Part shown: positions 25,851 to 48,429 of the stretch, in pieces
How the letters are laid out: the number at the start of each line of letters is the position of its first letter
Position numbering within the stretch: position 1 is the first letter of the stretch
Source of the DNA: Alphaproteobacteria bacterium
GTDB taxonomy: Bacteria > Pseudomonadota > Alphaproteobacteria > MPNO01 > UBA830
Direction: 5' to 3'
Assembly (NCBI GenBank): GCA_964291215.2
Contig: OZ219791.1
Span: 384,001 to 448,000 of the forward strand
DNA: 64,000 bases
The notes under the pieces: generated by a model
The model's input: the letters and a program-made list of their open reading frames with translations, nothing else
The model's database searches: none
Told to the model about the DNA's origin: nothing
Translations under genes and position numbers: made by a program

Positions 25851-25858
25851 ATCAAGGG

Positions 25859-25955
25859 GTAACTGCTCACCCCCTGGTTCCGGCTTGATGTCGGGGTAGA
25901 GTAACGAACGGGTTTACGTGGAGATTTGACATTGCAGGCCGATTCGCTTCGGGTG
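25859..25955 (+). mobile_element. Left end of the IS66 copy split by the integrative element
   Basis: GTAACTGCTCACCCCCTGGTTCCGGCTTGATGTCGGGG... matches the reverse complement of about 15477-15567; homology resumes at 45531. Confidence 0.9.
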
Positions 25956-26728
25956 TGACGGTAAAACTCCGAACGGAGTCGAGATCGGGCGAGGTTGCCC
26001 TGCACACCACCATCGCCTGAAACGCCGGCGTCACAAGGGACGGGAGCCGTCGCGGCGATTGAGCGAGACGACCGGTCCGCGATCTTCGAGCGCGTTCCGC
26101 GTTGTCGTTCGGTCGCAGAGGTAACAGAACGCGGCGCGGCGTGCAAACGGCGGAGGGCAGTCTTCACACATGGCGCACCGGAGCCGGCGGCGTTACCTCG
26201 GCGACACGGGCGCCGCCGCACATGTTCCGCGGAGCCGAAGGACGCCGCGCACATGTTACCGCGATACAGGCGTGCTGGACGAAAGCGGGGCTGTTCAGGG
26301 TGATCGCGTGCTGCTCACACATTGCCGCAGACGCAGACGGGGATGGCGCACCCGTTACCGCGGCGTCAGCCGCGCGGGTGCGGTGACGGTTGCGATAGCC
26401 GTTGCGATCGGAGGCGCCGACGGCGGCGCCTGCACGACTGCGGGCATCGGTGCGAAGCACGGTGTGAAGCACGGTGTCGTGCCGGTCCGGCAGCAGCGCC
26501 GGCAGTGGGCGGGTCAGCGGTGCCGGCGGCCCTGCGCCGGGGTCGGCGCCGCAACGGCGAGCGGCGAGCGACAGCGAGACCCCGGACCGCAGTCCGGGGC
26601 AGGCTCCGCACGGGCGCGGCGCGAAGCGCGCGCGAGGTGTCGGCGGCGCAGCGCGACGGGTGTGCGCATACGGAGACGGACCGCGCCGCCGCCGGAGCGG
26701 AGACGACGCGGCCCGTGGGTGCTGCGTG

Positions 26729-27655
26729 TCAGGCGGGGCAGCGCATGACCGGGATGCCGAGGCTGCGGGCCTTGTCGACGAGGTTTTCGGTGATGCCGGA
26801 GCCGGGGAAGGCGATAACGCCCCTGGGCAGGAGGTTGAGCAGTTCGTCGTTGCGGCGGAACGGTGCGGCGCGACCGTGGCGGTCCCAGTCGGGCTTGCAG
26901 ACGACCTGGTGGACGCCGTTGCGCTCGGCCCAGCGCGCCGCGATCTTCTCGACGCCGGGGCCGCCGCCGTGGACGAGGACGAGGTCGGCATACTTGGCGC
27001 GGGCCTGGTCGAGCCTGGCGATCACCGCGGCCGGGTCGGCGACGTCCTTGCCGCCGGCGATGGCGACGAGGGTGCCCTGCGGCAGGTGCGCCATGGTCGC
27101 GCGGTCCTTTCGGGCACGGACGAAGTCGCGGGCGTCGATGGCGGCGCTGGTGAGCGTGCCGGTCTGGCTGGCGTGGCTGCCGTGCCGGGGCCGCCACATG
27201 TCGCCGGTCTCTTCGCGGTAGGCGTGCGCGGCGGTGTTGCGCATCTTCTCGAAGGCGTCGCGCCGGTCTCCGAGGTTCTGCGCGCGGTCGGTGACGAGCT
27301 CCAGGTCGCGGGACTTGATCTCGGTGCCGTCCTGCTCGCGCTGGAGGTCGCGCAGGTCCGGGCTGAGCCGGTCGACGCTGCGGTCGAGGCGGCGGCTCTG
27401 TGCGTGGAGCATGTTGACGAAGCCCCACAGCAGGCTCTCGCGTTCGTCGGCGAGCTGGGTGCCGTCGGGGCAGGCGCCTTCGGCGAGGATGCGGAAGGCC
27501 TCGCCGATTGCGGTCAGCGCATCGTCCTCGTCCCAGACCTCGCGGGGGTCGAGCTCGTCGCGCTCGGGGGTGGCGCCGTAGAGGGCGGCGTGTTCGCAGA
27601 CGGTTGCGGTTGCGGACTGTCCGGCGGTCTCGACGGTGTCGGTATCGAAGGTCAT
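26729..27655 (-). CDS. DUF2493 / SLOG (YspA-like) domain protein typical of alphaproteobacterial mobile elements
   Basis: LLWGFVNMLH, TGDMWRPRHGS, VLVHGGGPGVE, PDWDRHGRAAPFRRND, FPGSGITENL; AAGGAG RBS. Confidence 0.85.
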   Translation of the reverse strand: MTFDTDTVETAGQSATATVCEHAALYGATPERDELDPREVWDEDDALTAIGEAFRILAEGACPDGTQLADERESLLWGFVNMLHAQSRRLDRSVDRLSPDLRDLQREQDGTEIKSRDLELVTDRAQNLGDRRDAFEKMRNTAAHAYREETGDMWRPRHGSHASQTGTLTSAAIDARDFVRARKDRATMAHLPQGTLVAIAGGKDVADPAAVIARLDQARAKYADLVLVHGGGPGVEKIAARWAERNGVHQVVCKPDWDRHGRAAPFRRNDELLNLLPRGVIAFPGSGITENLVDKARSLGIPVMRCPA

Positions 27656-27740
27656 GACGATCTCCTTGCGATCGGGTTGCACGTTCGGGGCCGATCCCCG
27701 CTGTGATGTCCTGTTGGGTCACGCGCGCGCAACGGAAGCA

Positions 27741-27879
27741 CCTGGGCCTGGAAGCTCTTGGGGCGGAGTGGTGCGGAAGATCGCGTTCGCACCGCCGATG
27801 CCAGGCGTGCTCGGCCTCTGACACGCGATCTTCACGGTCGCCGGCTTTCACGGTCCGCCCCTAGAGCTTCTTGCCCAGG
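27741..27879. promoter_or_regulatory. Long imperfect hairpin upstream of DUF2493 (candidate ssDNA promoter / ssi-like element)
   Basis: GAAGCTCTTGGGGCGGA pairs with TCCGCCCCTAGAGCTTC; inner GAAGATCGCGT (27776-27786) pairs with ACGCGATCTTC (27823-27833). Function is inferred. Confidence 0.5.
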
Positions 27880-28050
27880 CCGCAGGGAGCGCAGCGACCG
27901 GAGGACCCCGAAGGGGTTGCTGGAGAGAGCACGTGTGGCACAATGGGACAGCACAGCGGGGTGGCGTATTTCTCTGGCCCTGCACGGACCCCATCGGCGG
28001 TTCGGCCCGGCACGGCGCCGGGAAGGATTTCCGGCCCTGCCGTTTTTGCG

Positions 28051-28278
28051 TCAGTTCCACAGGGGATGGGAGTCGACCCGCTGCCGGGCGGTCTCGCGGA
28101 TGCGGGCGCGGTCGTGGAGATAGACGGGGCCGCGCGGGTCTTCGTCGAGGTGTATGGCGAACACCCTGCGCCCCGGCCGGGTGCTGTCGTCGAAGGCGTG
28201 GACGTCTCCGACATGGTCGCCGTCCCGGTAGATGCGGGATTCGTCGGGGGCGATGCGGCGGAAGGAGATGGTGCTCAT
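28051..28278 (-). CDS. Hypothetical protein (75 aa)
   Basis: MSTISFRRIAPDESRIYRDGDHVGDV...HPLWN; GGAGAA RBS; host-like codon use. Confidence 0.6.
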   Translation of the reverse strand: MSTISFRRIAPDESRIYRDGDHVGDVHAFDDSTRPGRRVFAIHLDEDPRGPVYLHDRARIRETARQRVDSHPLWN

Positions 28279-28460
28279 CGGGTTCTCCGGGTAGCGTGAC
28301 GGGTGCGCGAGCGGACTCCCTCTCCTCCTCGCACGGTTCACCCGCTTTCCAGCCTCGCTCCCACTCCCGTATGCGCCGCGGCGAGACTCGAACCTGCCCG
28401 CATGAGAAAAGGGCCGACGCGCGAGGCGCCGGCCCTGTGGGGAGGGAAGAACGGGAAGCT

Positions 28461-28889
28461 CTAGAACGGGATCTGATCCTTATCCATCGGGTCGCCGCCG
28501 GCCGCGTCCGGGCCGGGCTGCGCGGCGTTGCCGTTCGCCTTGTCGAGGAACTGGACGCGCCCGCCGGGCACGAGCAGGATCTCGGTCGAGAAGCGGTCGC
28601 CGTCCTCGCCCGGCTTCGACCAGCGCCGGGTCTGGAGCTTGCCGTCGATGTAGACCAGCCGGCCCTTCGTGGCGTGCCTGGCGAGCATGTCGATCAGCCC
28701 GTCCTGGAAGGTCACGACCCGGTGCCACTCGGTCCTGTCGATCCGCTCGCCGCTGCCGTTCCGGTCGATGTAGCTCTCGTCGGTGGCAACGCTCAGATTG
28801 GCGACGCGGCCGCCGTTCTGCAGGTGGTTGATGGTGACGTCCGCGCCGAGGCGGCCGATGATCTGCACCTTGTTCAATCCGAAACTCAT
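28461..28889 (-). CDS. ssb: Single-stranded DNA-binding protein
   Basis: LNKVQIIGRLG, TEWHRVV, KGRLVYIDGKLQTRRW, acidic C-terminal DQIPF. Confidence 0.95.
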   Translation of the reverse strand: MSFGLNKVQIIGRLGADVTINHLQNGGRVANLSVATDESYIDRNGSGERIDRTEWHRVVTFQDGLIDMLARHATKGRLVYIDGKLQTRRWSKPGEDGDRFSTEILLVPGGRVQFLDKANGNAAQPGPDAAGGDPMDKDQIPF

Positions 28890-28981
28890 TGCGATACTCC
28901 TTCAGGTTCGCGTTGATGACGATGGGTTGCGAACAACCGGGGCCGGGGTCACTCCCCCGAACCCCCGACCGTTCAATCTCT

Positions 28982-29238
28982 TCAGGCCCTCCTCCACCTC
29001 CGGTTCGCCGGAGGGAGCGACGCCGCCGGGTTCCGGGGCTCCGCCGGGTCCTGGAGGGACATCCCGAACGCCGGTTCCGGGAAGAGGCTCGCGAAGCCGT
29101 GTTCCGGACAGGCCGCGCCCCGGTCGGGACAGCGGATGGCGCGCTCGTCCTCGGCGATCTCGCGGACGGTGCGACGCCGAGTTCGGCGAGCAGGTCGCAG
29201 CCAAGCGGAAGGTCGAGGGATGTATCGGGATGAAACAT
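28982..29238 (-). pseudogene. Small hypothetical ORF, apparently frameshifted
   Basis: MFHPDTSLDLPLGCDLLAELG after a GGAGGAG RBS continues in another frame as VREIAEDERAIRCPDRGAACPEHGFASLF. Confidence 0.35.
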
Positions 29239-29429
29239 GGGCGGGGTCTCCTCTGCCGTTGCCCTGCCCGGCGACCTGTGCCGGACATCGATCCGGCATC
29301 GGCGGGGAGTCCTCTCCTCCGCCCTGCCGGACACTCGCCCGGCAGGCGCTTTACTCCTCTCCACGACACAGGGACGGCGCGGCGGATCGCGGCCAGGCGA
29401 GCGCCGCCATCGCCGCCCGGGACAGCATG

Positions 29430-30449
29430 TCAGGTCCAGGCGGTGAAGGAGGCGGTGACGGGGGCGTCGGCGACGATCTCGACGCGGTTGCGGTCGAGCT
29501 TCCCGAAGGCGAGGCAGAGGGCGACATCGGCCGGATCGTCGAACGGACCGTGCTCGCGGCCGGTCTCCAGTTCGATCACGGTCCAGACCGGCTCGTGGAC
29601 CGGGATGCCCCTGAAATGCGCCGAGCCTTGATACGACCTCTCGGCACAGGGCGCACAGCGCGCCGCCCCCTGTGACGGCGCCCCGCAGGCCGTGCACAGG
29701 CCGGCGGCCCGACGCCGGGCGTACAACTGCCGCGAGCGCGCGTTCTTGCGCTCCGGGTTGTGGCTGGCTTCCTCGATGGCGGCGCAGGGGCCGCAGCGCG
29801 AGAGGCCGGCCGGCTGCCCGCAGCGTGTGCAACGGCCCGCGGCCCTGCGTTCGTCATATTGCCGCCGTTCCGCCGCCTGCCTCCTGTCCCGGCAGGGCTG
29901 GCAGGTGGTTCCGCCCTCGACGGGGGGACGCTTGCCGCAGCGGATGCAGAGGCCGGCCCCGGCCCTTGCCTTCTGGCGGCGCCTGCTCTTGAGGCGGGCG
30001 GCCTTGCGTTTCGCCTCCGCATTGGCGCCGCCATAGGGCAGCCCGGCGGCCTTGCCGGCGGCGTAGCGGGCGCGGTCGTCGGCGCGGCGTTTCTCCAGGC
30101 ACGGCTCGCACGACGCGCGGCCATCGGCGGCCGGCTGCTTGCCGCAGCGGGTGCAGAGGCCTTTGGCGGCCCTTTGTTCCCTCTTGCTGCGGGTGCGCTG
30201 GCGCTCGGACTGCCGGACGGTTTCGGGGTCCCTTCGCGGCATGCCCGCGGCGCGCGGGCGGGCATCGCGGGCGCGGCCGGCGCGGTTGCGCTTGGCGGCG
30301 CACCCGGCGCAGACGCTGCGCCCCGGCGCGGGCGGGACCTTGCCGCAGCGCGGACACAGGTCTTGGGCGATACGCGATGCGGTGCGCCGGGCGATACGCT
30401 CGCGGTCGCGGGCCTTGCGGACTTCCGGGTTGCGGCAAGCCATGGCCAT
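29430..30449 (-). CDS. Arg-rich protein with five tandem CxxC-x(8-11)-CxxC zinc-finger-like repeats (339 aa)
   Basis: LCPRCG..CAGC, LCTRCG..CEPC, LCIRCG..CQPC, RCTRCG..CGPC, LCTACG..CAPC, separated by basic helical linkers; GGGAGA RBS. Confidence 0.8.
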   Translation of the reverse strand: MAMACRNPEVRKARDRERIARRTASRIAQDLCPRCGKVPPAPGRSVCAGCAAKRNRAGRARDARPRAAGMPRRDPETVRQSERQRTRSKREQRAAKGLCTRCGKQPAADGRASCEPCLEKRRADDRARYAAGKAAGLPYGGANAEAKRKAARLKSRRRQKARAGAGLCIRCGKRPPVEGGTTCQPCRDRRQAAERRQYDERRAAGRCTRCGQPAGLSRCGPCAAIEEASHNPERKNARSRQLYARRRAAGLCTACGAPSQGAARCAPCAERSYQGSAHFRGIPVHEPVWTVIELETGREHGPFDDPADVALCLAFGKLDRNRVEIVADAPVTASFTAWT

Positions 30450-30529
30450 TCTCCCGGTGGATGATGCGGGGTCGGGCAGGAGACGCCCGGCCGGCGGCGG
30501 GCCGGCCGGACGTCCGGCGAGGCGGGCGG

Positions 30530-30859
30530 TCAGCCGCGCTGGCGGCGGTCGATGCCGAAGCCCATGGCGTGGACGCCCCAGTACTGCACCCCGCCGCGGG
30601 AGCGCAGGCCGGTACACACGATGATCTCGTTGCGCGCCGGGCGCATCTCCTTCACTGCCTTCAGCGTGGCGGTGGCCGGCTTCGCGCCGCGCCGGGCGCC
30701 CTTCGGGGCGGTGTCGTCATGGCAACGGCGAATGTCGCCGTCCACCATGGCGCGAAAGCGTTCGACGGCGTATCGTTCGCCGTCCTTCAGGCCGCCGTTG
30801 AAGAAGTGGATGAGGAAGGTTGTGTCGGTGTTGCCGGGCCTCGGGATTGCGGATGTCAT
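30530..30859 (-). CDS. Hypothetical protein (109 aa), first gene of the ZnF-ssb-DUF2493 run
   Basis: MTSAIPRPGNTDTTFLIHFFNGG...; GGAGG RBS. Confidence 0.55.
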   Translation of the reverse strand: MTSAIPRPGNTDTTFLIHFFNGGLKDGERYAVERFRAMVDGDIRRCHDDTAPKGARRGAKPATATLKAVKEMRPARNEIIVCTGLRSRGGVQYWGVHAMGFGIDRRQRG

Positions 30860-31243
30860 GGGGAGCGCCTCCGTCGTGTCGGGACTTCAGGACAGCGGCG
30901 GAGACCCTCTCCCGGACCCCCCGCCCGCCGCCCCGCTCACGGCCACACCCGACCTCCCGGCGGTGCGCCGCGTGCGGACGCCAGCGGCTTCAACCGCACC
31001 GCACAACCCGGCCACGCGCCGCCTCGGCGACCGGGCCCCCGCCTCCCCCAACCGCGCCGAATTCTGGAATCGGGTCGACGATGAATGCACCGCCGGAGCC
31101 TGCCGCCGCGCTCCGATCGACAGCGGTGCTTCCCGCGCCGTCGCACAGGATCGCGTATCGGCGGGTTGCAGGAACGGATATCGGACAGACTTGCTTGACG
31201 GCAAGAGGGTTCCGAAATGATCTCCTACCCCTTACCCGGCCAG

Positions 31244-33806
31244 CTAAATCCCTGGGATGTAACCGAACGCTGACTTAACTATTGAACTAAAAATGCCGAC
31301 GACAATCGCCGCGAGTGCAACACGGTGCCGTGTAGCGCGGTCTTTATTTTCCTCCAATATGTTTACCGGAAAAGCCCACTTCAAGTATCCAAATAACGCC
31401 CGATAAATCAGGAGAGATATTCCCATTCCGTATATATAAAAGGCCACACGGAAGGACGAGTGATCGCCATCATTTGGAAGAAAGTAGTCAGCGTACACAG
31501 TAACCCAATACAATGCATATGGTGGCGCAAGGAACCAAAGTCCTACAGGGTGCAAGTCCGGTATGGCTATCGTAACCGGTTGATATATTGAGATTTTGCC
31601 TTTGTTTCGGGTTCCCGATTACGGGGTTTGGTGACAATCGGTGGTTGGAGAGCCGGCTTTTGTCACGATCGCACGATGGCGGGGCCGTTGTGCGGGACCG
31701 CTCCGCCCCGCCAGAGGCAGGGTAGGATGCTGTTGCCACATCAACCTCGGGAGCGGTCCCATGCCAGTGTCGCAGCCTGCGCAGTCTTCGTCCATCGATC
31801 TGTCGGGCTTGCCGGCTCGGGTTCTGGAGGCGTTGACGGGATTGGCGACTGTGTGCCGCGCGCCGCTTCCTGCGGAGCCCTGCCCGGCGGCGTTCGAAGA
31901 GATGGAGCGGCGTGTGCAGGCGAAGGTGAACGCGCTGGGCTGCGAGGTTCTGGGGTCGTGGATCGAGCGCCTCGACGACGGGGCTGAGCGGGTCGAGCGG
32001 GCCGGGCAACGCCGGTTCCGTGTGGCGGCGACGCCGAAAACGATCATGAGCGCGCTCGGCCCGGTGACCTACAGGCGGGCGCGTTATCGCCACGGCGTGG
32101 GCGGCCCCTCGTTCGTGCCGGTGGACGAGAGCCTGGGGCTGGTGAACGACTGGCTGACGCGCCCGGCCGCGCGGCTCGGGCTGATGATGATGGGCCACGG
32201 CACGGCCAGGGAAGCGGAAGAGTTCTTCTCGGAGATGGGCGCCATGGTGCCGTCGGCGAGCAGCTTGCAGCGGCTCGCCCGGACCATGCATGAGCGCTGG
32301 GAGGGCCTGGGGCCGCAGGCGCTGGACAGTATCCGCAACACGGAAGACATCCCATCCGAGGCAGTCAGCGCCTCGGTCTCGCTCGACGGCGTCATGGTGG
32401 CGCTGCGTGCCGGCGAGGACGGGCGCGACGAGGCCTGCTGGCGCGAGGCCGCCTGCGGCACGGTCTCCTTCCATGATGGGGAAGGTGAACGGCTCAAGAC
32501 CCTCTACTTCGCCCGCATACCGGAGAGCGACAAGCCCACGCTGAAGGCGCAACTCGCAAGCGAGGTCGCGCATATCCGCCAGGCCCGGCCCGACATCGCC
32601 ATAGTCGCCGTCGCCGACGGCGCCCCCGACAACTGGACCTTCCTGGAGAGCCTCTCGCCCGAGGCCGAGGCCGTCGACTTCTGGCACGCCTGCGAGCATC
32701 TCCGCACAGCCTCCGACCATGCCGTCGATCCCCGCTGGTTCGAGACTTGCCGCCATACCCTGCGACACGACCCGCACGGCAGCGCCAAGGTGATCCGGGC
32801 GCTGCGCTACCTGCGCGACAAGGCAGGCAGCAACCGCACCGCGCGCACCGTCATCGAGCGCGAACTCGCCTTCTTCCGCAAGCACCGCAAGCGCATGCGA
32901 TACCGCAACCTCAGCGACCGCGGCATCACCATCGGCTCCGGCGTTGTCGAGGCCGCAAACAAAACCCTCGTCGCACAGAGGATGAAGCGCTCCGGCATGC
33001 GATGGCGCATCGCCGGCGCGCAGGCCGTCCTCACCGTACGCGCCCTCATCAAATCCGGGCGCTTCGACCGCGCATGGGCAGGCCTCATGAGCGATGCTGA
33101 TACCCCGGCCAACGACAACAACTGCCTTGGCTACGCCGCCAGGCGCGCCGCATGAGCCACATCAGCCGACCGGTCCCGGCATCGCCATGTCAGACTCACG
33201 CCCGTCCTACATCGTAGGCAAAACTCTCATGAATAAAGGAATAACACTTCTTTTTAGACTTGAATCTACTATTTACAATGTCCCTAATTGCGCGAAAGTA
33301 AGCAGTATCCTGTGCTTGAATTGACACGCTGCTGTCGTTGGGCGTTGGTTCAGACACCAATGGACTGGGATCAAAAAGCGGCGGTTTGTCGAATCGAAGC
33401 AAAACAGAGAAACGGTTCGGCGGGACATTTCCATTCGCGTGCCTTTTGTACGAATTCTCGTTCGTGAAATATACCGCTTTAATGGGGAACGGCAAATTCT
33501 GAGAATCGAAATCTGCTCTGTCTCCCCGTACTCAGTTTGGCCATCAAAACCAGCTACTGAAACTGTCAGTTGAAATGCATCATTCAACAGAAATTTTTTG
33601 CGTTCTACGAATTCATATTCGGTCTCGGAGTCGAACTTGGAAATGTTAGCAACAAGCTGCTCACTTTCCTTCCTCGTGAGAACGTTTAATTTACGATATG
33701 CGGCTTTGATTTGTGGCAAGGACAATTGGCATCCACGTATTGGTATATGGTCCTCCCACCACTGGATATCGTTTGTAGCCTTGCTGATTATCGAAGTACC
33801 GGACAT
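31244..33806 (-). pseudogene. Unknown membrane protein (soluble N-terminus plus about 3 C-terminal TM helices) split by ISKra4
   Basis: Removing the IS joins ...ESFAYDVG to LWFLAPPYALYW...; additional frameshift near 33510; AT-rich. Confidence 0.7.
31548..33203 (+). mobile_element. ISKra4-family element with an intact transposase (ATG about 31761 to 33155)
   Basis: SLDGVMV, VADGAPDNW, DFWHACEHL, IGSGVVEAANK, RMKRSGMRW; termini GGGTGCAAGTC / GACTCACGCCC; 8-bp TSD GTCCTACA (31540-31547, 33204-33211). Confidence 0.9.
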
Positions 33807-33849
33807 TGTACTCTGCCTCCCATACTGCCTTCAGTCACCTGGACGGCTT

Positions 33850-34290
33850 CTGTGATTCCCACGCGACGCAAGTGGTCCTTCAACATGGAGATTCGATAGG
33901 ACTGGAGTTTATCCGCGTGGTCAGCGGCGCACACGTCCCAATCAACGATGCGACCAAGCGAGAAGGCGCGGAATCGGCCTTTTCCTTCCTTGCCGTGCAG
34001 AATTCGTTTTCGTCCGTTCGAATGGAATCGCGATTGTTTCCACGATCCTCCCGGACGGGAGGACAACCCCTCGGCTTCGGCAAAGGGAATGCCATGTCCG
34101 TTGTCGGCGACTCTGATGGCCTTTTGAGCCCGTCGAGGTCATTTTCAACCAGCGTCACGTCGATATGCGTGGCATCCGCATCGACCGTGTTCCAGATCAG
34201 CTCGGCCAGGGCAAGGAGGGGTTTTCGGGTCTGCGCGATCCGCTCCAGATGGTCGTCCTGAACCTGTATCTCAAAAGTCCTGGCGGTCAT
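33850..34290 (-). pseudogene. GHKL (HATPase_c_3) ATPase N-terminal remnant
   Basis: [15 protein letters not shown], then [14 protein letters not shown] in another frame; ATG overlaps the hsdR stop. Confidence 0.7.
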
Positions 34291-36030
34291 GCTGCCCACT
34301 TCGCCGATAGCACTTCGGCCTGTTGCAGAACCGTCTGCACGGCGGCGTCCTGGAGGTCGGGCGGATACCCGTGCCTGCGCAGGATGCGCTTGACCAGAAC
34401 CCGCATCCGGGCGCGGGCCGGCCCGCGGTGCTGCCAGTCCACGGAGGCTTTGCTTTTCAGCCCGTTCAGCAATTCCCGGGCGATGACGCGAAGGTGATCG
34501 TTGCCCATCACCTCGACCGCGCTCTCGTTCTGGGCCAGAGCATCGTAGAAGGCGATTTCCTCGGGGCTGAGACCCTCCTCCTCGCCGCGCCGGTGTGCGG
34601 CGCGGATGTCCTTCGCAAGCCCGATCAGTTCCTGAAGGACCTCGGCCGTCGTGAGGGCGTTGCCGTGGTAGCGGGCGATCGCTTCCTCCAGCCTCCGGGA
34701 GAAGGCCCGGGTCTGCACGACGTTGACCCGGCTTCGCGAGCGAAGCTCCCCGTTGATGAGCTTGCGCAGCGCCTCCAATGCGAGGTTCTTCTTCTCCATC
34801 TCCCGTATCTCGGCCAGGAACTCGTCGGAAAGGATGGAAATGTCGGGCGTGTCCAGTCCGGCGGCTGCGAGAATGTCGACGATCTCGGTCGAAACGACCG
34901 CGCGGCTGACGATCTGCTGAACCGCCAGGTCCCGCTCCGCGGAGGACTTGCCGGCGCCGGGCGCGCTTTTGGCGAGCGCCGCACGGACGGTCTGGAAGAA
35001 GCCCACCTCGTCGCGGATTTCCCGGGCTTCGTCGCTGGCGGCCGCGAGCGCGAACGCCCTGGTGAGCGCCAGCACGGCGTCGTTGAAGCGGCGCCGGGCG
35101 TGCTTCTTGCCTTCCCCGGTCGATTCCCGGGCCGACTCGCGTTGCTGCATGTCGAGGACCCACTCGATGGCGCCGGCCAGCGCCGCGAGCCGCTCCTGCG
35201 GCGACCCGACAAGGCCGTTGCGGAAGTCGAAACCATGGAACATGGCGCTCACGATCTCGTATTTCTCCAGCATGACCGCGACGGCTTCGGCCTCGTCGAT
35301 GCCGGCGTGCCTTCGGTCGTCGCGCGAGTACTGGCCGAGGGCGGACTTCAGGTTCTGCGCGATGCCGATGTAGTCCACGATCAGACCGGCGGGCTTGTCG
35401 CGGAACACGCGGTTGACGCGGGCGATGGCCTGCATGAGCCCGTGCCCCCGCATGGGCTTGTCGATGTACATCGTGTGCAGGCGCGTCGAAGCCGGTCAGC
35501 CACATGTCCCGCACGATCACCAGCCTGAGCGGGTCGTCCGCGTCCTTGATCCGCTTGGCGAGCAGCTCCCGGCGGGCCTTGCCTCCGATGTGGCGTTGCC
35601 AATGCGTCGGGTCCGACGCCGCGCCGGTCATGACGATCTTGATGACGCCGCTTTCGTCGTCGTCGCTGTGCCAGTCCCGGCGCAGCCTGACGATCTCGCC
35701 GTAGAGCGCAACGCAGATGCGGCGGCTCATGCAGACGATCATGGCCTTGCCGTCCATGCCGGCAATACGACTCTCGAAATGGTCGACCAGATCCCGGGCA
35801 ACCAGGCGCAGGCGCTTCTCCGTCCCGACGACGGCCTCGACGTTCGCCAATCGTCTCTTGAGCCGTTCCTGCTCGCCTTCGGCCTCGTCCTCGATCAGTT
35901 CGGCGACCTCGTCGTCGAGCGCCGGCTTCTCGCCTTCGTCGAGTTCGATGCGGACGAGGCGGCTCTCGTAGTAGATCGGTACGGTCGCGCCGTCTTCGAC
36001 GCCGCGGTTGATGTCGTAGATGTCAATGTA
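34287..36030 (-). pseudogene. hsdR: Type I restriction subunit R, C-terminal half (5' part deleted at ISAzo13; frameshift near 35480)
   Basis: [72 protein letters not shown]. Confidence 0.9.
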
Positions 36031-37260
36031 AGGATTCTCGCCAAAATAGATTGTTTTTTGATGTGGATCTGCTATCTAATGTGTCATGGAAGCGATAGTC
36101 GATACGCTGCGATCCAAATTTGTGGTGTTGCGTCCGGTTCTGAACGAACGTGCGCGGCGCCTGTGGGCGGCGACGGAGGCCCGTGCCATCGGGCGCGGAG
36201 GCATTGCGCGAGTGGCTGAGGCGACGGGGATGTCGCGCAGCACCGTTCGCGCCGGGCTGAAGGAGCTTGATTCGGAATCTTCGAGTGAGATTCCTTCAGG
36301 ACGTTTGCGTCGCCCCGGCGGCGGGCGCAAGCGGGTGGCGGATGTGGATCCGGGTTTGGTGGCGGCGCTGGAGCGCGAGCTTGAACCGATGACGCGCGGC
36401 GATCCGGAGAGTCCGCTGCGGTGTCACAGTGCCGCACGGCTGGCGGACCGTCTTGCGGTCGAGGGCCACCGCGTCAGCGAGCGCACGGTGAACCGGCTGC
36501 TCCACGATCTGGGGTACAGCCTCCAGGCCAATCGCAAGACGCTGGAAGGCCGCCAGCCCGGGATGCGCAGTTCCGACGCGCCGGGTGCGCGCGTTCCAGA
36601 GGCTGGGCCAGCCTGTGGTGACACGAAGAAGAAGGAAATCCAGTACCGCAATGGCGGCCGGGCCCCAAGGGCGACCCTGAAGCCGTCAACGTGCATGACT
36701 TCCCCAATCCAGAGCTCGGCAAGGCGATCCCCTACGGGGTCTACGATCTCACCGCCAACGCCGGCTGGGTCAGCGTCGGACACGACACGGCGGCGTTCGC
36801 GGTTGAGACCCTGCGCCGCTGGTGGCGGCAGATGGGCCGGCTGCTCTATCCCGATGCCAAGCGCCTGCTGATCACCGCCGACGGCTCCAACAACAGCCGC
36901 AACCGGCTGTGGAAGCTGCAGCACCTCGCCGACGAACTCGGGTTGAAGGTGTCGGTGGCCCACTTCCCGCCCGGAACCAGCAAGTGGAACAAGATCGAGC
37001 ACCGGATGTTCTGCCATATCACCCAGAACTGGCGCGGCCGGCCCCTCGTCAGCTACCAGGTGATCGTCAAGCTGATCGCCGCGACCACCACCGGCCTCAC
37101 CATACGCTCGGACCTCGACGAGAACAGCTATCCGCTCGGGGTCAAGGTCAGCGACGATGAGATGGACGGCCTCGCCATCCGCAGAGACCCGTTCCACGGC
37201 GAGTGGAACTACACCCTCACGCCACGGACATAACGAATATATTATTTTGGCTAGAGTCCT
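36031..37260 (+). mobile_element. ISAzo13-family element, degenerate
   Basis: LNERARRLWAA, DTKKKE, HDFP..GKAIPYGVYD, PPGTSKWNKIEHR, FHGEWNY; TIRs AGGATTCTCGCCAAAATA / TATTTTGGCTAGAGTCCT. Confidence 0.9.
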
Positions 37261-37576
37261 TACCATTGTCTGCCAGCACCACATGGTCCCGCTCGATCTC
37301 CCGATGGAACTGCTCCGGCAGACGCGCCCAGTCCCGGGCCTCTACCAGGAAAGGAATGTACGATTCCCGCACCGCCTCCTCGAAGCCCGCCAACTTGTCG
37401 GCCGGGATCTCCCGCTGTCCCGGCCCGCGCAGCACCAGATCGAGATCACTGCCGTCATGGCTGCGCCCATTGACGCGGCTGCCATAGGCCCACACCTCTA
37501 CATCGGGCAAATGCTCCCGCAACAGTGCCTCCAGTGCCTCTCGATGCTTCGGATGGAGATGCATCCGGTCAGTCAT
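37261..37576 (-). pseudogene. Minimal nucleotidyltransferase (MNT) domain; reading frame still open where ISAzo13 cuts it
   Basis: VWAYGSRVNG...SDLDLV (GS-x-DxD motif). Confidence 0.8.
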
Positions 37577-37816
37577 CCGGCGCCGCCTCGATCATGTCCG
37601 CCAGCGCCCGGGCATCGGCGATAAAGTCGGGCAACAGCCTCAGCGTGGCTTCGGCGAAGCCTGCGCCGTAGTCGTGCGCGGTATCGTTATCGACAATCCC
37701 TCGCAGATCATGGCAGGGGCAAGGCTGTCGGGGAACAGCCTTCACCGGAAGGCGCCGCGCGCCTTGGTTTGCCGAAATGTTTCCCAACGCATGCAGAGGA
37801 TGGGAAGAGGCCATCG

Positions 37817-37820
<4 letters not shown>
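37569..37820 (-). pseudogene. HEPN / nucleotidyltransferase substrate-binding (HI0074-like) remnant
   Basis: C-terminal NDTAHDYGAGFAEATLRLLPDFI; the N-terminal part looks replaced or deleted, and the Arg of the R-x4-H motif is absent. Confidence 0.55.
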
Positions 37821-39355
<1,535 letters not shown>

Positions 39356-39506
39356 ATAGTCTGAATCCTTGGCCGCCAACGCGGATACAGTTTGCCGACT
39401 CGGCTCTACGAATACCACTGCATACTTGGCCGACACGGTTCGGGCGGGGAAGGATCCCGTGGATCGCGGTGCCACCATTCCAGCGTCGCCGACGCTGCCC
39501 AACAGA

Positions 39507-39640
39507 TCATAGGGTGAGGCCCTTCGCGCGGCTCTGGCCGTAGAAGCGCTTGAGCGCGGAGAAGGCGGCCTCGACCGGTGCCCGGTGCCGGTAGATCAGG
39601 CGGTTGCGGCGCTGCTGCCAATGAGGCAGCGCCGCCGTTG
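39507..39640 (-). mobile_element. IS5-family transposase fragment
   Basis: [31 protein letters not shown] (R-x-x-VE-x-F-x-K signature). Confidence 0.6.
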
Positions 39641-39720
39641 ACAATCGGCCGCAGACACGACTACCATCGATCCCGTTCCGATACCGAGCTAGCGTTTCGA
39701 GGGAAGGAGCCGGGACAGGG

Positions 39721-40803
39721 GTGATGAAGAGCGACCTGAGAGAACAGGTAATGGAGTGGCTGACCAGCGCCGACACGTGCTTCCTGCTTGGCGCGGGCTG
39801 TAGCGTTTGCGCCGACAAGCCGATGGTCGACACGCTTACGAAGAAGGTGCTGAATGATGCTGATCCAAAACTCAGAGAACAGTTCAAGGGTTTGAAGGCA
39901 GTTGGCGACCGCTCGACGACGGTAGAAGACCTCATCAGCTACCTGATTCGATACAAGGATATCCTCGACAAGATCACGAATGCGGACGGCCACGAAATCT
40001 CCATCGAGTCGATCGATTCGTGGCTCACCGAGATCAAGGGCAAGATTGTCGCTGCGGTCACCGATGACTGGATGCCGAGTGACTACCATAAACGGTTTCT
40101 GCGCCGCGTATCCGGACAAGCCCAGCGCAGGTCGAAGGACATATTCACCCTGAACTACGATACATTGCTGGAAGCGAGTCTCGACGAGTTACGCATTCCC
40201 TATGCGGACGGCTTCCGAGGTGGCCACCGAGCGTGGTTCGACCCCTCCACATTCGATGAAGAGAGGGATAGTACGTCATACCGGCTGTTCAAGCTTCATG
40301 GATCGATCAACTGGACGCGCGATGTCGCCGGACATGTCCGGCGCTGCCGCAATACCAACGAAGGTGCACTCGGTGAACGGATCATCGTCTATCCGTCCGA
40401 GCAAAAGTACCTACAAACCCAGTACGGTGTCTATGAAGAGCTGCTGAACCGGTTTCGTAATAGGCTTCGCGCTTCAGGCGCGAACAATTGTCTGGTTGTT
40501 CTCGGTTACAGCTTGAATGACGAGCATATAAACGAAGCGATCATTGACTCGGTGACATCGCGGGGCAGTAACCTCACGGTCATCGCCTTCGTCGGCCCGG
40601 AGGATAACCGCGAGCGCCAGAACGAACGCCTGAAAGCCTTCGGCGAGCGTTGCGATTCCCGGTTCAACGCGTTCATCGGCAGCGGTGCTGCCGGTCATTT
40701 TGTCGGTCATGCACTGGATGCCGATGCAGCCAAAGCGGTGCTGGAAGCCGACCTATGGAAGTTTGAAAAGCTAGTCGATTTCATTGCCAAGGAGGAATCA
40801 TGA
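39721..40803 (+). CDS. SIR2-family (SIR2_2) NADase effector
   Basis: FLLGAGCS, FTLNYDTLLE, LFKLHGSINW, VLGYSLNDEHIN. Confidence 0.92.
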   Translation: MMKSDLREQVMEWLTSADTCFLLGAGCSVCADKPMVDTLTKKVLNDADPKLREQFKGLKAVGDRSTTVEDLISYLIRYKDILDKITNADGHEISIESIDSWLTEIKGKIVAAVTDDWMPSDYHKRFLRRVSGQAQRRSKDIFTLNYDTLLEASLDELRIPYADGFRGGHRAWFDPSTFDEERDSTSYRLFKLHGSINWTRDVAGHVRRCRNTNEGALGERIIVYPSEQKYLQTQYGVYEELLNRFRNRLRASGANNCLVVLGYSLNDEHINEAIIDSVTSRGSNLTVIAFVGPEDNRERQNERLKAFGERCDSRFNAFIGSGAAGHFVGHALDADAAKAVLEADLWKFEKLVDFIAKEES

Positions 40804-42491
40804 CCGTTGCGATTCTGAAGATTGGCCGCGTAATCGAGGTCTCAGGATCGAAGGTCGTGGGTGCGCTTGCGGGCACGGTCGAAGATCTTTACCGAACATA
40901 CAAGAGCCGTCGTTACAGGGTTGGGCAGATCGGATCTATCGTAAAGATCGAGGCCGGCGACAAGCTAGTGTTTGGCGTGGTAACGGCCCTGCGCATGACT
41001 GAAACTCCCCTTGATGGCGGACCACCGGCAGATATTGTGGAGGCGTCACCAGACGCCAAATGGTTGGAAATCGAGCTGTTCGGCGAGGCGCTGCGCACCG
41101 GCCTCGGCGAAAGTGATTTCGAGTTTCAGCGCGGCGTGGTTACGTATCCGCTTCCGGGCCAAGGCATTTTTGTTGCCAGCGTCGCCGAGCTCGAACGCAT
41201 CTATCATAAGCCGGACAGGGCGGGCATCCATATCGGTACGCTCTCGCAGGCGTCCTCTCTGCCTGTGTACTTGCTTGCAGACGAGTTGCTCGGAAAGCAC
41301 TTTGCCATTCTTGGCACGACTGGATCGGGCAAGTCATGTTCGGTAACCGTACTGCTGCGTGCTATTCTTGAAGTCGCGCCAAAAGCCCACATGATTTTGC
41401 TTGATCCACACAACGAGTACCAACGAGCATTTCCCGAGTGCGCCGAAATCATTGATCCTACAACGCTCAACCTGCCGCACTGGCTCCTAAACTTCGAGGA
41501 GAGTGTAGAGCTGTTCATTGGCAAAACAGAGCATGTGGCGACGAGCCAAGCGAATATCCTGAAGGATGCCATCCTCGCCGCGCGGCGAGCATTCGAGCTT
41601 CCCGATATCGCTCGTGAACATATTACGGTGGATACGCCAATTCCTTACAAGTTGAGCGAGCTGATCGATAAGATCGATGCCAGCAAACCATCTCAGCCGT
41701 CAAAGCAAGACTCCTATCTCAAGATCAAGAGTAAGGTTGAAACGCTGCGGCAGGATAGTCGCTTTTCATTTCTGATTCGTCCTGACGAAGACGTAACCGA
41801 CGAGCTGGTACATATTGCCGGGCAGTATCTACGCATACCGGTATCTGGCAAACCGCTGTCGATCATTGATCTTTCGGGTATCCCCTCGGACGTTGTGGAT
41901 GTCGTCGTATCAGTATTGTGCCGTATGATTTTTGATTTCGCGGTCTGGAGCCAGCGTCCTGTTCAGGTGCCGATACTCTTGGTTTGCGAAGAGGCACATC
42001 GCTATGCCCCGCGTGGCAGTGATGCGGCCTTCCAGCCGACCAGACAAGCGCTCGCGCGCATTGCCAAGGAAGGCCGAAAATACGGAGTCGGTCTTGGGTT
42101 GATTTCACAACGCCCATCTGAACTGGCAGAATCAATTCTCTCGCAATGCAACACCCTTGTCGCATTGCGGATGAGCAACGAACAAGATCAGAATTTTGTG
42201 CAACGTGCGCTGCCCGACTCGGTTCGTAGCCTGGTCAATGTGCTATCGACGCTGCGGACGCAGGAAGCGCTGGTGGTCGGTGAAGGGTCGGTTGTGCCAG
42301 TTCGGCTGCGCTTCAAAGACCTTGCAAAGGAGCATCAGCCGCAAAGTGCCGATGTGCCCTTTGTCAGCAGTTGGTCGGAGGAAGAAGCAGATCTTGAATA
42401 TGTGAAGAGTGTGGTGCGACGTTGGCGTCTTCAGGAACGCCCACCGATTGCCGTGGCAAACGCAAACAGAGAGGCAGACGACCGAGCATAG
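40800..42491 (+). CDS. herA: HerA/FtsK-like ATPase (HAS barrel plus DUF87); partner in Sir2-HerA defence
   Basis: Walker A GTTGSGKS, DPHNEY, Walker B LLVCEEAH, IAKEGRKYG, SQRPSEL; ATGA overlap with sir2. Confidence 0.92.
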   Translation: MTVAILKIGRVIEVSGSKVVGALAGTVEDLYRTYKSRRYRVGQIGSIVKIEAGDKLVFGVVTALRMTETPLDGGPPADIVEASPDAKWLEIELFGEALRTGLGESDFEFQRGVVTYPLPGQGIFVASVAELERIYHKPDRAGIHIGTLSQASSLPVYLLADELLGKHFAILGTTGSGKSCSVTVLLRAILEVAPKAHMILLDPHNEYQRAFPECAEIIDPTTLNLPHWLLNFEESVELFIGKTEHVATSQANILKDAILAARRAFELPDIAREHITVDTPIPYKLSELIDKIDASKPSQPSKQDSYLKIKSKVETLRQDSRFSFLIRPDEDVTDELVHIAGQYLRIPVSGKPLSIIDLSGIPSDVVDVVVSVLCRMIFDFAVWSQRPVQVPILLVCEEAHRYAPRGSDAAFQPTRQALARIAKEGRKYGVGLGLISQRPSELAESILSQCNTLVALRMSNEQDQNFVQRALPDSVRSLVNVLSTLRTQEALVVGEGSVVPVRLRFKDLAKEHQPQSADVPFVSSWSEEEADLEYVKSVVRRWRLQERPPIAVANANREADDRA

Positions 42492-42553
42492 TGCGAGACT
42501 TTCATAGGCGAAGATTACTTGTGGGAATCCAGTGCGGCCTTGCTGGTTTGGAC

Positions 42554-42790
42554 CGTGCCTATCCGCTTGTTTCATACACCCACTAGATGTGGGGTAACGG
42601 GATGCTGCCAATTTCCGGAGTACCATCCGGCGAAAATCGGGCCTTCCGTCGTCGCTGCGATCCGAAACCCAGGCAGCGATTGGGGAAGCTCCAGGTTGGG
42701 ACGATCGAAAATGTCCATGAAGCACTGCCCTCCCGGCTCACCGGGAGCCTACTATATCTAGTGGGTGTATGAAACAAGCGGATAGGCACG
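42554..42790. mobile_element. MITE family C (237 bp), IS1595-like ends
   Basis: Perfect 35-bp TIR CGTGCCTATCCGCTTGTTTCATACACCCACTAGAT; 8-bp TSD GTTTGGAC (42546-42553, 42791-42798). Confidence 0.92.
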
Positions 42791-42911
42791 GTTTGGACAA
42801 TGCCTGCACGCTACCGAAGGCGGATATCAAGCAGCTAGAGAGGTTGCCGTCGATAATCACCAGAATCTGAACCGTGACAGCAGCCTTCTTATCCTCAACG
42901 CGGGGACAGGT

Positions 42912-44288
42912 CTACAACCAGTCCAGGGCCGGGCGTCGGGTCGACGCATTCGGGTCACCGTCCAACTCGATGCCATCCGTCCGCTCGGTCCCCTCGGGTC
43001 TCACGCAAAGGGGCGTTCGCTTCTCCTCAGGTTGGGGGGACGGCCCGCCGGCGAACGAGAATTCGGGCACCGCGCTCAATATGTCGCCGTGCTCCGCCTC
43101 GTCCGGCAGCGGAGGCGCCTCCGCCCTGTACCCCATTGCTCGCGCGATGACGGCGGCGGCCTGGGCGGCGGCGACCCGCAGCGCGCCATCGTCGAGATGG
43201 GCGTAGATCGCGGTGGTCTCCCGCTTGCGGTGTCCGAGCAGCCGTCCGACCGTGGTGAGCCCGACGCCGTTCATGACGCCCTAGGAGGCCCAGGTGTGGC
43301 GGCAGTCGTGGATGCGAAGGCCCGGAAGCCCCGCCTCGTCGCGGATACCGCACCAGAAGGTGTAGAGCCTTGCCGGTGTGAGGGTCTCGGGGAACACCCG
43401 CTCCCGGCCATCCGGTCGCGGCAGCGCCTCGACCAGCCTTGCCGCTTCGGGTCCGAGCCAGATGGTGCGCGGGCCGGTCTTGGAGTCTTCGATGCGCGCG
43501 CTCGCGCCGTCTCCGGTCAACTCTCCGATCTCGTCCCACCTGAGGTTGATGACTTCGGAGAGCCGCGCTCCGGTCAGGGTCAGCAGCCGGATGGCCGCCA
43601 CCGGCCAGGGGTGGTCCTCCCGGTGTCGATCCAGCACCGCGCCGAGACGCTCCAGCTCTTCGCGGCTGAGGTAACGCGCGACAGGCTTGCGGGGGTTCTT
43701 CACGATGTTGGCGCAGGCATCGGGGACATGCTCGCCGATGTCGCCCCACTGCCGGGCCGTCCCGAGCATGGCGCGGAGTATCTCGAAGGCGCGGTTGGCG
43801 GCGCCGGGCCTGTCCGCGCTGGCGGCGTCGAACCATGCCGAGACGCGGGCATGGTCGATGGCGTCGAGCCGGAGCCTGCCGAAATGCGGCATCAGGCGGT
43901 TCTTCATGTAGCTATCGAAGGTCTTGAGCGAGGACGGCTTCCAGCGGTGTTTCCGCCGCGAGCGGTAACGGGCGGCGAAGTCCCGGAACAGCGGCGCCTT
44001 CTCCTTGCGCGGCGGCGTCACGTCTTCGCCGCCCCACAGGCGGGCGAGCACGGCCGCGCCTTCCCGGCGGGCTGCGTCGAGAGGCAGTTCGGGGAAGCGC
44101 CCGAGGGTGATCTTGCGCATGCGTCCCCGGACGCGGGTCTGGACGATCCAGGACCTGACGCCGGAGGGCTGCACCCTGACCCCGAAATGCGCCAGCAGAT
44201 TGTCCCACAGGGTGTATTCCCGTTCCGCCGGCTTGGCGGCGGCGACGGCCTTCACGGTGAGCCGGACACGATGCCTGCGGCCGCTCAT
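42912..44288 (-). pseudogene. Tyrosine integrase 2 (arm-binding N-terminus), with an in-frame TAG at 43281-43283
   Basis: REYTLWD..FGVRVQPSG, LLTLTGARLSE, DSKTG, RIHDCRHTWAS*, LLGH..TTAIYAHL. Confidence 0.9.
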
Positions 44289-45329
44289 CGCCCATTCTCC
44301 TTCCCGGTCATGGCCTCGTGGACGATGCCGGAGATGCGCCCGGCCGCCTCGCGGACATGCTCGTCGGCGAGATGGGCGTAGCGTTCGGTGGAGGCGGTAT
44401 CGGCATGGCCGAGCAGGCGGCCGACGGTGTAGAGGTCGAGGCCGCTCATCACGGCATGGGAGGCGAAGGTATGCCGGCAGTCGTGGATGCGCACATCGTC
44501 CAGCCCGGCGAGACCGCGCAGCTTCTGCCAGCGCAGGCCGAGGTCGGTCATCGGGCCGTCGCCCTTCCCGTTCGGGAAGACGAAGCGTCCCTCGCGCGGC
44601 AGGCCATTCAGGACGGCCCGCGGGGGAAGCTGGAGCGCCCGGTCTTGGAGTCCGGCAACACCGCGCGGGTGTCCCGTATCCAGTCCCATTGCAGGCCGGC
44701 GATCTCGGACGACCGGGCGCCGGTGAACAGCAGCAGGCGGCCTGCCGGTCCTCCGCATGGTCGAGCACGAAGCCGAGGCGCTTCAACTCGTCCAGGGACA
44801 GGAACCGCTCGCGCGGCGCCGTCCTGTAGCGCCGCATGTTGCGGCAGGGGTTGGAGCCCTGCGGGCGAAGGTCCCACAGCTCCGCCTGCCGCATCATCAC
44901 CGAGAGCACCGGCAGGGTCCGGTTGGCGCTGCCGAGGGTTCCGCTGAGGGAATCGAACCAGCGCCGCACATCGGCGCGGTCGATCTTCGCGACGGGCATC
45001 GCGCCGAAGAAGGGCAGGAGGCGGCGCATGAAGTCGGCCGCGAAGTCGGCGAACAGCGGCCCGGTCTCGCGGTCGGCTTTGGCTTCGGCGATGGCGGCAA
45101 TGGCCTTCTCCCTCGCCTCGGCGGCGGTCATGTCGTCGGTCGTGCCGAGGATCGCCCTGGGCGCGCCGAACTGGCGTGAGGTCCGGACGAAGAAGGTCTT
45201 CGTCCCGTTCCCGGCGACGGTGAAGCCGAAGGCGGGCAGGTCCCTGACGGTCAGGCCGTATCGTCCGGGTTTCTTCTCCCTGAAGGTGCGGCGGACCGTC
45301 CGCTCGTTGACGGGGGCATGGATGCGCAT
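44285..45329 (-). pseudogene. Tyrosine integrase 1, frameshifted with short deletions
   Basis: FGFTVAGNGTKTFF, ANRTLPVLS, SNPC, RERFLS, LLFTGARSSE, DSKTG, RIHDCRHTFAS, LLGH..STERYAHL; its stop overlaps the integrase 2 ATG. Confidence 0.88.
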
Positions 45330-45556
45330 GGGCGTGTCTCCGTTGTCTGTTCCCTCGGGCGCCGTCCGTCCCGGGGGAACGGAACGGCGCTCCTGAACGG
45401 ACAACGCGACCCGCGCGCGGGACCGCGGTCAGAGGCCGGGCCAGGCCCAACCGTCTGTCACGCAACGGAAAACTGCCGACCGATGCAGGCCGGCCGGGCC
45501 TCGCTCCCTGCATCAAGGATGCGTCGGGTGGTCATCGAGAACGACGGGGACCGCCA

Positions 45557-45685
45557 GTGGGCTACTTTGGATCGAAGGCGACGAGCGGGCTGTGCCAGCT
45601 GCTTCCGGGGCTCCAGCCCCCGCATGATCTGTATGTGGAAACGCATCTCGGAGGCGGCGTGCTGATGAAGCGCAAGGCCGGGTGA
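45557..45685 (+). pseudogene. Dam-like (D12-class) adenine methyltransferase N-terminal fragment inside IS66 (second copy at about 15315-15443, minus strand)
   Basis: GYFGSKATSGLCQ...PPHDLYVETHLGGG.LMKRK resembles the Y-x-G-x-K and motif I region of D12-class methylases. Confidence 0.55.
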
Positions 45686-46663
45686 TGGCGACGGGCGGCG
45701 CGCGAGGAGTTCGAAGCGGCCAAGACCGCGGCGCTGCCGGCAAGGTGCCGGAAGAGGCCGTGATCCGCGTCTTCGTCATCCTCATCGTCGTCCTTCTGGA
45801 GAAGACCACGCACGAGCCGGAACTCCGGTCTGCCGCCGTCACAGACGGACAAGGACGAGAGTGTGCCGGGAGCAACGGCAAGGGCCCGAAGCCGAACCGG
45901 CAGATGGGCGACAACCTGCGCAAGATCATCGTCGAGGAAACGGTTGCGGCCTGCGACGCCTGCGGCGCCGACGGCCCCGTCGATCGGGAGCGCCGCACGA
46001 CATCGTGTTCGAGGTCGTCGAGCGCCGCGCCGAGATCAAGGAATGCCCGAAGTGCAAGGGCCGGTTCCCCGAAAACATCCCGTGCAGTACGGCATCCAGG
46101 CCCTCGTCATCAACCTGCTGGTCGCCCAGATGCTGTCCCTGCGCCGTGCTGTCGCGCTCGTGCAGGCGATCTCCGGCATCAAGCTCTCCGAGGCCTCAGC
46201 TATGCTTTCACGATGCGTCATGGGAGGAGGCTGCCGTGGCGCACCTCCTGCAACGCCCGATGTCGACGATTTCGGATCAACAGTAAGTGGCTTCATGTCG
46301 TGGGACCCTGACGTGCAAGTTCCCACACCGCAAGCGCGGGCAAGAGATCGGCCCGTGCTACAAGGGCGTCCTGGGCCTCGTACATGGGCCAGTGTAGCCA
46401 CCAGCTGTGCGGCAGCCACCTGCTGCGCGAACTGACCTTTGTCGTCGAGGCTACCGCGCGACTGATGAAGAGCCTGCTCCGCGAGGTCTGCCACAAGGTC
46501 AACAAGAGCGCATCCAGGACCCTGAACGAGGCCGGGCGCTACCGCACCATCAGGGCGCCAGGGAACTGCCCGACATCCCGCCGAAAGGAAAACGTGGACG
46601 CAAACGCGCACAACCTGCACGAACGTCTCGTGAAACACGAAAACCTGCGCTTCACAGGCGACC

Positions 46664-48193: not shown

Positions 48194-48429
48194 CCGACGT
48201 CAGCTTCACCAACAATGCCGGAGAACAGAAGATCAGGATGGCAAAGGTCAAGGTGCCCGGATGCTTCCACTCCACGCAAAAGCATGGTGCCAAGCTACCT
48301 CACCTCCATGGCGGCACTCGGCTACAACCCACTCGTCGCCACCCAGATCGCCCTCGACGGAAAAGCCGCAGACATCATCAACGAGCACTATGAATCAGAA
48401 CCCAACAAGGGGTGAGTAGATACGTACAA

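Follow-up and report, generated by a model that had tools for sequence, protein, structure and literature searches.

How defence islands without a relaxase gene move between genomes is an open question. A segment in a 64,000-nucleotide stretch from an Alphaproteobacteria bacterium (assembly GCA_964291215.2, contig OZ219791.1, positions 384,001 to 448,000; hereafter the window) suggests an answer that can be tested, namely that the target of an integrase is the nick site of a relaxase. The segment (25949-45530) carries defence genes and two adjacent tyrosine integrase genes, and splits an insertion sequence (IS) of the IS66 family. From the sequence comparisons below we consider it probable that this is a relaxase-less integrative element whose integrase pair inserts at the nic site of conjugative transfer origins (oriT), with the IS66 copy as a likely secondary hit. 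A preliminary description had seen in it a possibly undescribed, defence-carrying tandem-integrase element with a short core, which our analysis bears out (it is probably undescribed), and had proposed IS66 as its attachment site, which our analysis does not. Also as described there, no relaxase, type IV secretion system (T4SS) or capsid domain was found in the 127 open reading frames (ORFs) of the window that we scanned, apart from weak cross-matches of the HerA P-loop to coupling-protein models.

The element unit recurs with sharp ends, in the order left end, a module of SLOG, single-stranded DNA-binding protein (SSB) and CxxC genes, variable defence cargo, two integrases and right end, and records of the family come from Alpha- and Gammaproteobacteria, Bryobacterales and Binatia. 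At the right end the consensus reads GC(xx)C-N2-4-G(xx)GC and then GT-N4-TGT; the cores differ in their middle bases and are 7 or 8 nt long. The first part forms a hairpin of 5 bp, in which 70 of 70 cells are paired over 14 aligned sites and three of the five pairs show two-sided changes, a level of covariation reached by none of 500 shuffles. This end sequence matches the published nic sites of MOB_F relaxases, which read GCAAAAACTTGTTTTTGCGTGGGGTGT/GGT in F, ...TGCGTAGTGTGT in the R100 variant (PMC3074121) and GCGCACCGAAAGGTGCGTATTGTCT/ATA in R388 (PMC4814116), an example from the element family being GCACCATCGGTGCGTGGGGTGTGA. As in the MOB_F origins on which TrwC and TraI act (F, R100 and R388), the inverted repeat lies directly 5' of the conserved nick sequence, GT-N4-T(G/C)T and nick, with an RHH gene on the hairpin side and SSB-type genes on the other; the family differs in that its putative nic sequence would double as the recombination boundary. 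The motif stands 100-200 nt upstream of 31 of 52 tandem integrase pairs (7 on the other strand) and downstream of 2 of 48, and the pairs that bear it include cultured Sphingomonadales, on plasmids, at around 40% protein identity. A loose genome-wide scan for the motif gave 122 matches against 102-124 in shuffled sequence and was dropped as uninformative.

The surroundings of these sites also resemble transfer origins. The genome that contains the window encodes a full F-type tra set with TrwB and TrwC (C1 845-868 kb); TrwC matches number 8 in this genome and 21 in genome G041. Searches of the same genome with PF03135 found no VirB4 and with PF11843 no match, even in controls, and both nulls are misleading, as F-type TraC and TrwC were detected with other models. 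Downstream of the two best TrwC matches, at 17.0 and 12.5 kb, lies a nic-like site that has an RHH/NikA-like gene beside it, adjoins a SLOG/SSB module and lacks a neighbouring integrase pair, a layout that by its sequence would be that of an unoccupied oriT. The putative occupied state, in which an element separates the RHH half of such a site from the leading-region or left-end half, occurs at C1 421838-447824 and in at least three G041 loci (C5 237799-259809, C5 388692-419504 and C4 261500-237332). TrwC lies on the same strand within 35 kb upstream of 7 of 29 array junctions, compared with 2-4% of random positions, and the other three TrwC layouts together account for one case among the 29. 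On a Tritonibacter plasmid the order is mobF, a small gene, a conserved origin region ending at the site and then a tandem integrase pair; on a Phaeobacter plasmid this region is likewise present, the similarity extending a few bases beyond the site, and the pair is missing. The integrases of the Tritonibacter clade are on the 3' side of the site, opposite to those of the window element.

The window preserves both junctions of one insertion. Alignment to an intact copy of the IS (14038-15567) confirmed the earlier reading that its left end and body lie 19.6 kb apart: the left end (25859-25949) matches at 95.7% over 92 nt, the body resumes, collinear, at 45527, and TCGGGTG is present at both junctions (25949-25955 and 45524-45530), again as described. 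At the corresponding position the intact copy reads TAGTGGTG. Removal of the interval had been said to rebuild the IS; collinearity is indeed restored, with a product 1 nt shorter than the empty allele (a 7-nt core against 8 nt), three IS bases (positions 92-94, AGT) having been lost. The left core of the window is donor-type, whereas every empty IS allele differs. A 26-kb sister element (C1 1414565-1388356) has an empty site in the relative G001, GCG TGGGATA GTCC; its right junction carries a target-type core, TTGGATA, and its left junction reads TGGAGTG. As in integrative and mobilizable elements (IMEs) generally, then, an integrase stands beside one end and an empty site can be recovered. 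In both cases with known empty alleles, the window and this sister, the crossover can be placed at the 5' edge of the 7-bp core instead of at the nick, a position that points to the tyrosine integrase pair rather than to a relaxase. Crossover at the 5' edge with a mismatched overlap of 7-8 bp is as expected of a tyrosine recombinase, and the coupling sequences of Tn916 provide a parallel for such an overlap.

Several observations weigh against insertion at transfer origins. Three of the 14 rows behind the hairpin covariation were selected by a hairpin scan. By strict scan the motif is absent at 21 of the 52 tandem pairs, only some of which were recovered by a looser look, so the oriT claim is limited to some tandem-pair clades; in six integrase-free MOB_F plasmid regions a relaxed motif gave 6 matches against 2.3 in shuffled sequence, of which only 2 were convincing, and 2 regions had none. 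No same-strand TrwC lies within 35 kb of 22 of the 29 array junctions, and array members are not independent; in G041 C1 the tra/TrwC block is on the opposite side of the site. Donor-type cores occupy both window junctions, where one round of exchange predicts one target-type core, and repair or a second exchange would be needed to account for them. Recovery of the empty site from G001 failed for C2 2222243 and C1 2546340, where homology ends 124 and 27 nt short. The preliminary description had suggested looking for the circular junction and the empty site: no circle joint was present among the public contig matches listed, and the empty IS allele was found in three public contig sets from one study, as expected given the many IS copies; these sets may derive from the sample in which the window originated. 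No RNA run was among the public-run matches listed. The array at C1 41570 sits inside another IS, itself absent from G001.

A pair with the low specificity of Tn916 might produce much the same pattern by inserting at any look-alike of GCG-T-N4-TG, forming arrays since its own ends match best and resembling nic as an ancestral relic, with no preference for the origins of other elements. Such an enzyme would fit the non-array junctions in unrelated genes and repeats (16 in this genome, 8 in others), the variable length and sequence of the cores and the array junctions remote from TrwC. We nevertheless regard it as rather unlikely, given that sites with an RHH gene and TrwC exist without an adjacent integrase pair, that elements are located between an RHH half and a leading-region half, that the Tritonibacter pair adjoins the site behind mobF and that the hairpin covariation spans distant clades.

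Integration could also be the work of a TrwC-like relaxase, which would join a nic-to-nic unit into nic-like chromosomal sites, with the integrases as passengers or active elsewhere. The element boundary matches a nic site, targets that are minimal or mismatched are used by TrwC to integrate transferred DNA according to the available part of PMC3264647, TrwC matches are numerous both here and in G041, and array junctions look identical under either model. Such a reaction predicts that left junctions consist of target sequence as far as the nick and right junctions of complete donor sequence as far as the nick; instead, the left core of the window is donor-type, its right end has G after the core in place of the T seen before the nick, and the right core of the sister is target-type. 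As the integrase pair also lies around 200 nt from the site at 31 loci, we consider integration by a relaxase improbable.

The IS66 copy itself could be the intended target, a conserved position in the 5' end of IS66 offering many harmless landing sites. The host IS belongs to this family by its GTAA termini, its 8-bp target duplications (in 98 of 147 paired copies) and its TnpC homology (tblastn to an IS66 transposase fragment, E 3e-23, with Pfam and NCBIfam matches). It makes up 4.6% of the 6.15-Mb genome, a share that weighs against specific attachment, and bears a look-alike of the true core. The copies examined are decayed single-ORF elements full of small deletions, and none of the four longest-ORF copies shown out of 103 has an intact transposase frame. 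Among 243 matches to the IS 5' end in the genome, 205 span the site, none of them with the element core or occupied, so that 1 of 206 sites holds an element and the claim that IS66 serves as attB is largely refuted. Of the family's 9 left ends and 7 integrase-side ends in this genome, only those in the window touch the host IS. With related left-end types included, 16 junctions border outside DNA: 9 in single-copy sequence, 3 in other repeats, 1 in the family's own CxxC gene and 3 in the host IS, these last being the two window junctions and a related left end around 60 nt further into the IS (C2 2510742). At eleven further junctions two ends of the family meet.

Of 34 distinct junctions on the integrase side in other genomes (from loci of which 13 belong to a single genome), 26 have a left end of the family type as neighbour and 8 have other DNA. 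None of the 34 lies in the host IS, and the expectation that homologues would end at the same IS66 position was thus not borne out. Six of the eight outside flanks were scanned, the remaining two being too short; they contain an ABC transporter, EamA, a TPR protein, an endonuclease/phosphatase and, in two cases, no match, and no IS66 domain. Most ends of the family adjoin other family ends or RHH-side origin halves, and some lie in unrelated genes and repeats. Homologues at unrelated sites are the outcome that the preliminary description had itself named as telling against IS66. A target allele unlike the core adds to these results, and we rejected IS66-specific attachment as very improbable, its support being one cleanly split copy and the nearby end at C2 2510742.

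The target duplications of the split IS do not match (left ATCAAGGG, right GTACAATG), as is also the case for 46 of the 147 paired copies, and because of this mismatch its halves have probably recombined since insertion. At a sister locus whose left flank is the same (C2 569545-568105), the two IS ends do share a target duplication. A 1.5-kb stretch on the left side of the element that takes in the IS left end (window 24449-25949) is duplicated with 94.6% identity at C2 569455-570946, where the IS is whole and empty. No public contig among the matches listed bridges the left junction by 31 nt on each side, so the window junctions rest on this assembly. An assembly chimera of two repeats, although it would suit the unbridged junction, the unmatched duplications and a genome with 26% of its sequence in 17-mers of at least 5 copies, is highly unlikely, as the junctions fall at IS positions 91 and 95, exactly the element ends set by independent copies, twice over.

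Other IS66 left ends are cut at position 95, the right junction point of the element, at G000 C2 972785 and at least 7 other loci, where a common TGAACTT sequence and an inverted part of a related IS66 follow. Repeats throughout the genome (for example window 43000-45300 and 14038-15567) share many deletions, mostly of 5-7 nt and often at short microhomologies; in 39 IS copies aligned to the longest copy, 569 of around 790 gaps are of this size. Assembly error as their origin was set aside, as public contigs match some of the deleted forms.

Under the reading we prefer, insertion of the unit at conjugative nic sites by its integrase pair, the window segment is one of many copies bounded by a 7-8-bp core within the hairpin and GT-N4-TGT. 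Int1 and Int2 would act together, each probably exchanging one strand and tolerating a mismatched overlap, to excise the unit and insert it at the nic core in the transfer origins of conjugative elements. On excision, the half with hairpin and nic sequence and the leading-region half would come together in an oriT-like circle junction, and a co-resident TrwC relaxase and F-type T4SS could then mobilize the circle. Because insertion at the oriT of a helper would leave each end with a similar rebuilt site, units could accrete and swap ends, which would explain the tandem arrays and the mixture of end combinations; the IS66 site and other look-alikes would be secondary targets. More tentatively, we propose a widespread family in which the attachment site is the transfer origin: a heteropair of integrases may recombine at the MOB_F nick, an oriT may be assembled by excision, the oriT of a helper may become a growing and shufflable defence array at the edge of the leading region, and a relaxase could peel off units flanked by two rebuilt nick sites without excision. 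Targeting of oriT would also account for the tandem defence arrays next to leading regions, and predicts the helper. A two-integrase system that tolerates mismatches and has a very short target is of mechanistic interest in itself.

Cultured carriers (Aurantiacibacter atlanticus and plasmids of Sphingorhabdus, Tritonibacter and Novosphingobium) make these predictions testable without the uncultured host. A clean example is an 11.9-kb unit on the Sphingorhabdus plasmid NZ_CP022549.1 (L173 13575-25443), which has GCCGCGTTCGGTGTGC at both ends, the integrase pair and dcm/vsr restriction cargo; no empty allele of this element was found. The Novosphingobium P6W plasmid (L179) has traF-traH-traG, a nic-like site, the integrase pair and then a DRT3 defence locus. 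At L053 (2436 and 8675) and L060/L062 (8682 and 15623), two nic-core sites face opposite ways and have left halves in common or swapped, which suggests inversion between sites.

The comparisons with known systems that follow draw on the available portions of the cited sources. The closest precedent is the streptococcal IME_oriT, which use the nick site of MOB_T origins, as well as secondary sites, for insertion and encode their own relaxase and one integrase (PMC7563843, PMC5704250). Integration at the conserved nick-site sequence of a conjugative oriT, secondary chromosomal sites, cargo and a helper T4SS are common to both, for the window family as judged by sequence and context. The differences are that IME_oriT use MOB_T origins in Firmicutes and encode a Rep_trans relaxase, one integrase and an excisionase, whereas the window family has a site matching MOB_F with TrwC neighbours, no relaxase in the unit, two arm-domain integrases, a leading-region-like module, defence cargo and tandem arrays. 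IMEs with two integrases are described in Prevotella (PMC5704250). Like SE, GInt and Tn554, the family has at one end an operon that encodes two catalytic tyrosine recombinases, and a short spacer carried from donor to new junction (PMC10214605); SE, reported in that source only from Gammaproteobacteria, also need tfp between intA and intB plus srap, whereas here the genes overlap directly, both products carry Arm-DNA-bind_3 and the core, of 7-8 bp, forms part of a nic-like site. RIT elements differ in having three simple recombinases without an arm domain. The iOriT genomic islands are likewise integrative and relaxase-less, with a predicted oriT by which they hitch on co-resident conjugative elements, but have mostly one recombinase, come from six nosocomial species and show, in the available portion, no coincidence of att and oriT (bioRxiv 10.64898/2026.01.13.699239). 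The IntSXT subgroup (DUF4102 arm domain) shares the N-terminal Arm-DNA-bind_3, SAM-like and catalytic domains, in a single integrase at a tRNA or gene end rather than a stable first and second pair (PMC8138268). In the literature searched, which left most subscription papers out of scope, we found no element that targets a MOB_F nic site and no two-integrase element that targets oriT. The kind of element is thus known by precedent from the streptococcal MOB_T systems, and its two-integrase MOB_F version is probably undescribed.

Features of the element and its flanks in the window
Position	Strand	Feature	Basis
25859..25949	+	IS66-family left end, first 91 nt, decayed; likely secondary target	Alignment to intact copy
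25949..25956	+	Left junction core TCGGGTG + T; donor-type, no empty IS allele reads so	
25956/25957	+	Predicted nick; no hairpin before it in the window copy	Comparison with PMC3074121 Table 1
25957..26070	+	Element left end; contains GGGCGAGG (25987-25994, inverted partner of 45499-45506)	
26044..26065	+	Motif common to all left-end types, within the left end	
26729..27682	-	SLOG-family protein (YAcAr)	PF10686, E 2e-23
28051..28290	-	Small conserved ORF, no family match	
28461..28889	-	SSB	Domain scan
29430..30446	-	Conserved CxxC-repeat protein, no family match	
30530..30859	-	Small conserved ORF, no family match	
31548..33203	+	Nested ISKra4-like IS, 8-bp duplication GTCCTACA	
34287..36030	-	Type I restriction subunit HsdR, C-terminal part, broken	
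36031..37262	+	Nested ISAzo13-family IS	
37217..37576	-	Nucleotidyltransferase / HsdS-like fragment	
37817..39502	-	Type I methyltransferase HsdM, open frame	
39721..42491	+	SIR2-HerA anti-phage pair, open frames of 360 + 563 aa	PADLOC, E 2e-52 and 4e-132
42912..44288	-	Integrase 2 (Int2), Arm-DNA-bind_3 tyrosine recombinase, in-frame stop 43281-43283	
44285..45329	-	Integrase 1 (Int1), Arm-DNA-bind_3, five deletions, frameshifted	
45499..45530	+	Element right end: CCTCGCTC, hairpin GCATC-AAG-GATGC (45510-45522), G, core TCGGGTG (45524-45530)	
45527..48423	+	Remainder of IS66-family element, another IS nested at ~46663-48193	

The two integrases had been described as full-size, which does not hold for this copy: compared with the intact copy in L031, Int1 lacks 6, 60, 13, 7 and 6 nt and is frameshifted, and Int2 has an in-frame TAG, so the window copy is unable to make its own integrases. 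Its transfer would need integrases in trans, because a complete hairpin-plus-nick is absent from both junctions. A naturally intact pair (380 + 455 aa) is present elsewhere in the genome (C1 ~1973-1975.5 kb). The stop codon of Int1 overlaps the start of Int2 (ATGA) with no gene in between, and Int1 starts 195 nt from the core, inside the right end. A quick tree of 34 pairs places first and second integrases for the most part in different clades (4 changes, compared with 23 when shuffled), and both kinds retain the catalytic motifs, consistent with a specialized pair. Tandem clusters of three arm-domain integrases, with no nic-like site upstream, occur at G000 C1 174696-178013, 887514-890800 and 2080646-2085320.

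The genes at the other end, from SLOG to the second small ORF, are all oriented toward the left end, SLOG being the first gene of this conserved leading-region-like module. The CxxC-repeat protein, present in nearly every left-end module, has no match in Pfam, NCBIfam or PADLOC and falls in an Atlas cluster without a name; it is a candidate anti-defence or DNA-binding gene. The SIR2-HerA pair scores below curated cut-offs in a separate family scan. Sister units carry as defence cargo CBASS-like E1/E2/JAB-patatin, MmeI, GmrSD, SNF2/DUF499, MazG, AAA-subtilase and toxin-antitoxin pairs. Between HerA and integrase 2 lies a perfect 37-bp inverted repeat around ~170 nt (window 42552-42792), single in the genome, and some A-type leading-region modules of G041 (for example L119 3080-4375) contain one more distant arm-domain integrase, at 30% identity.

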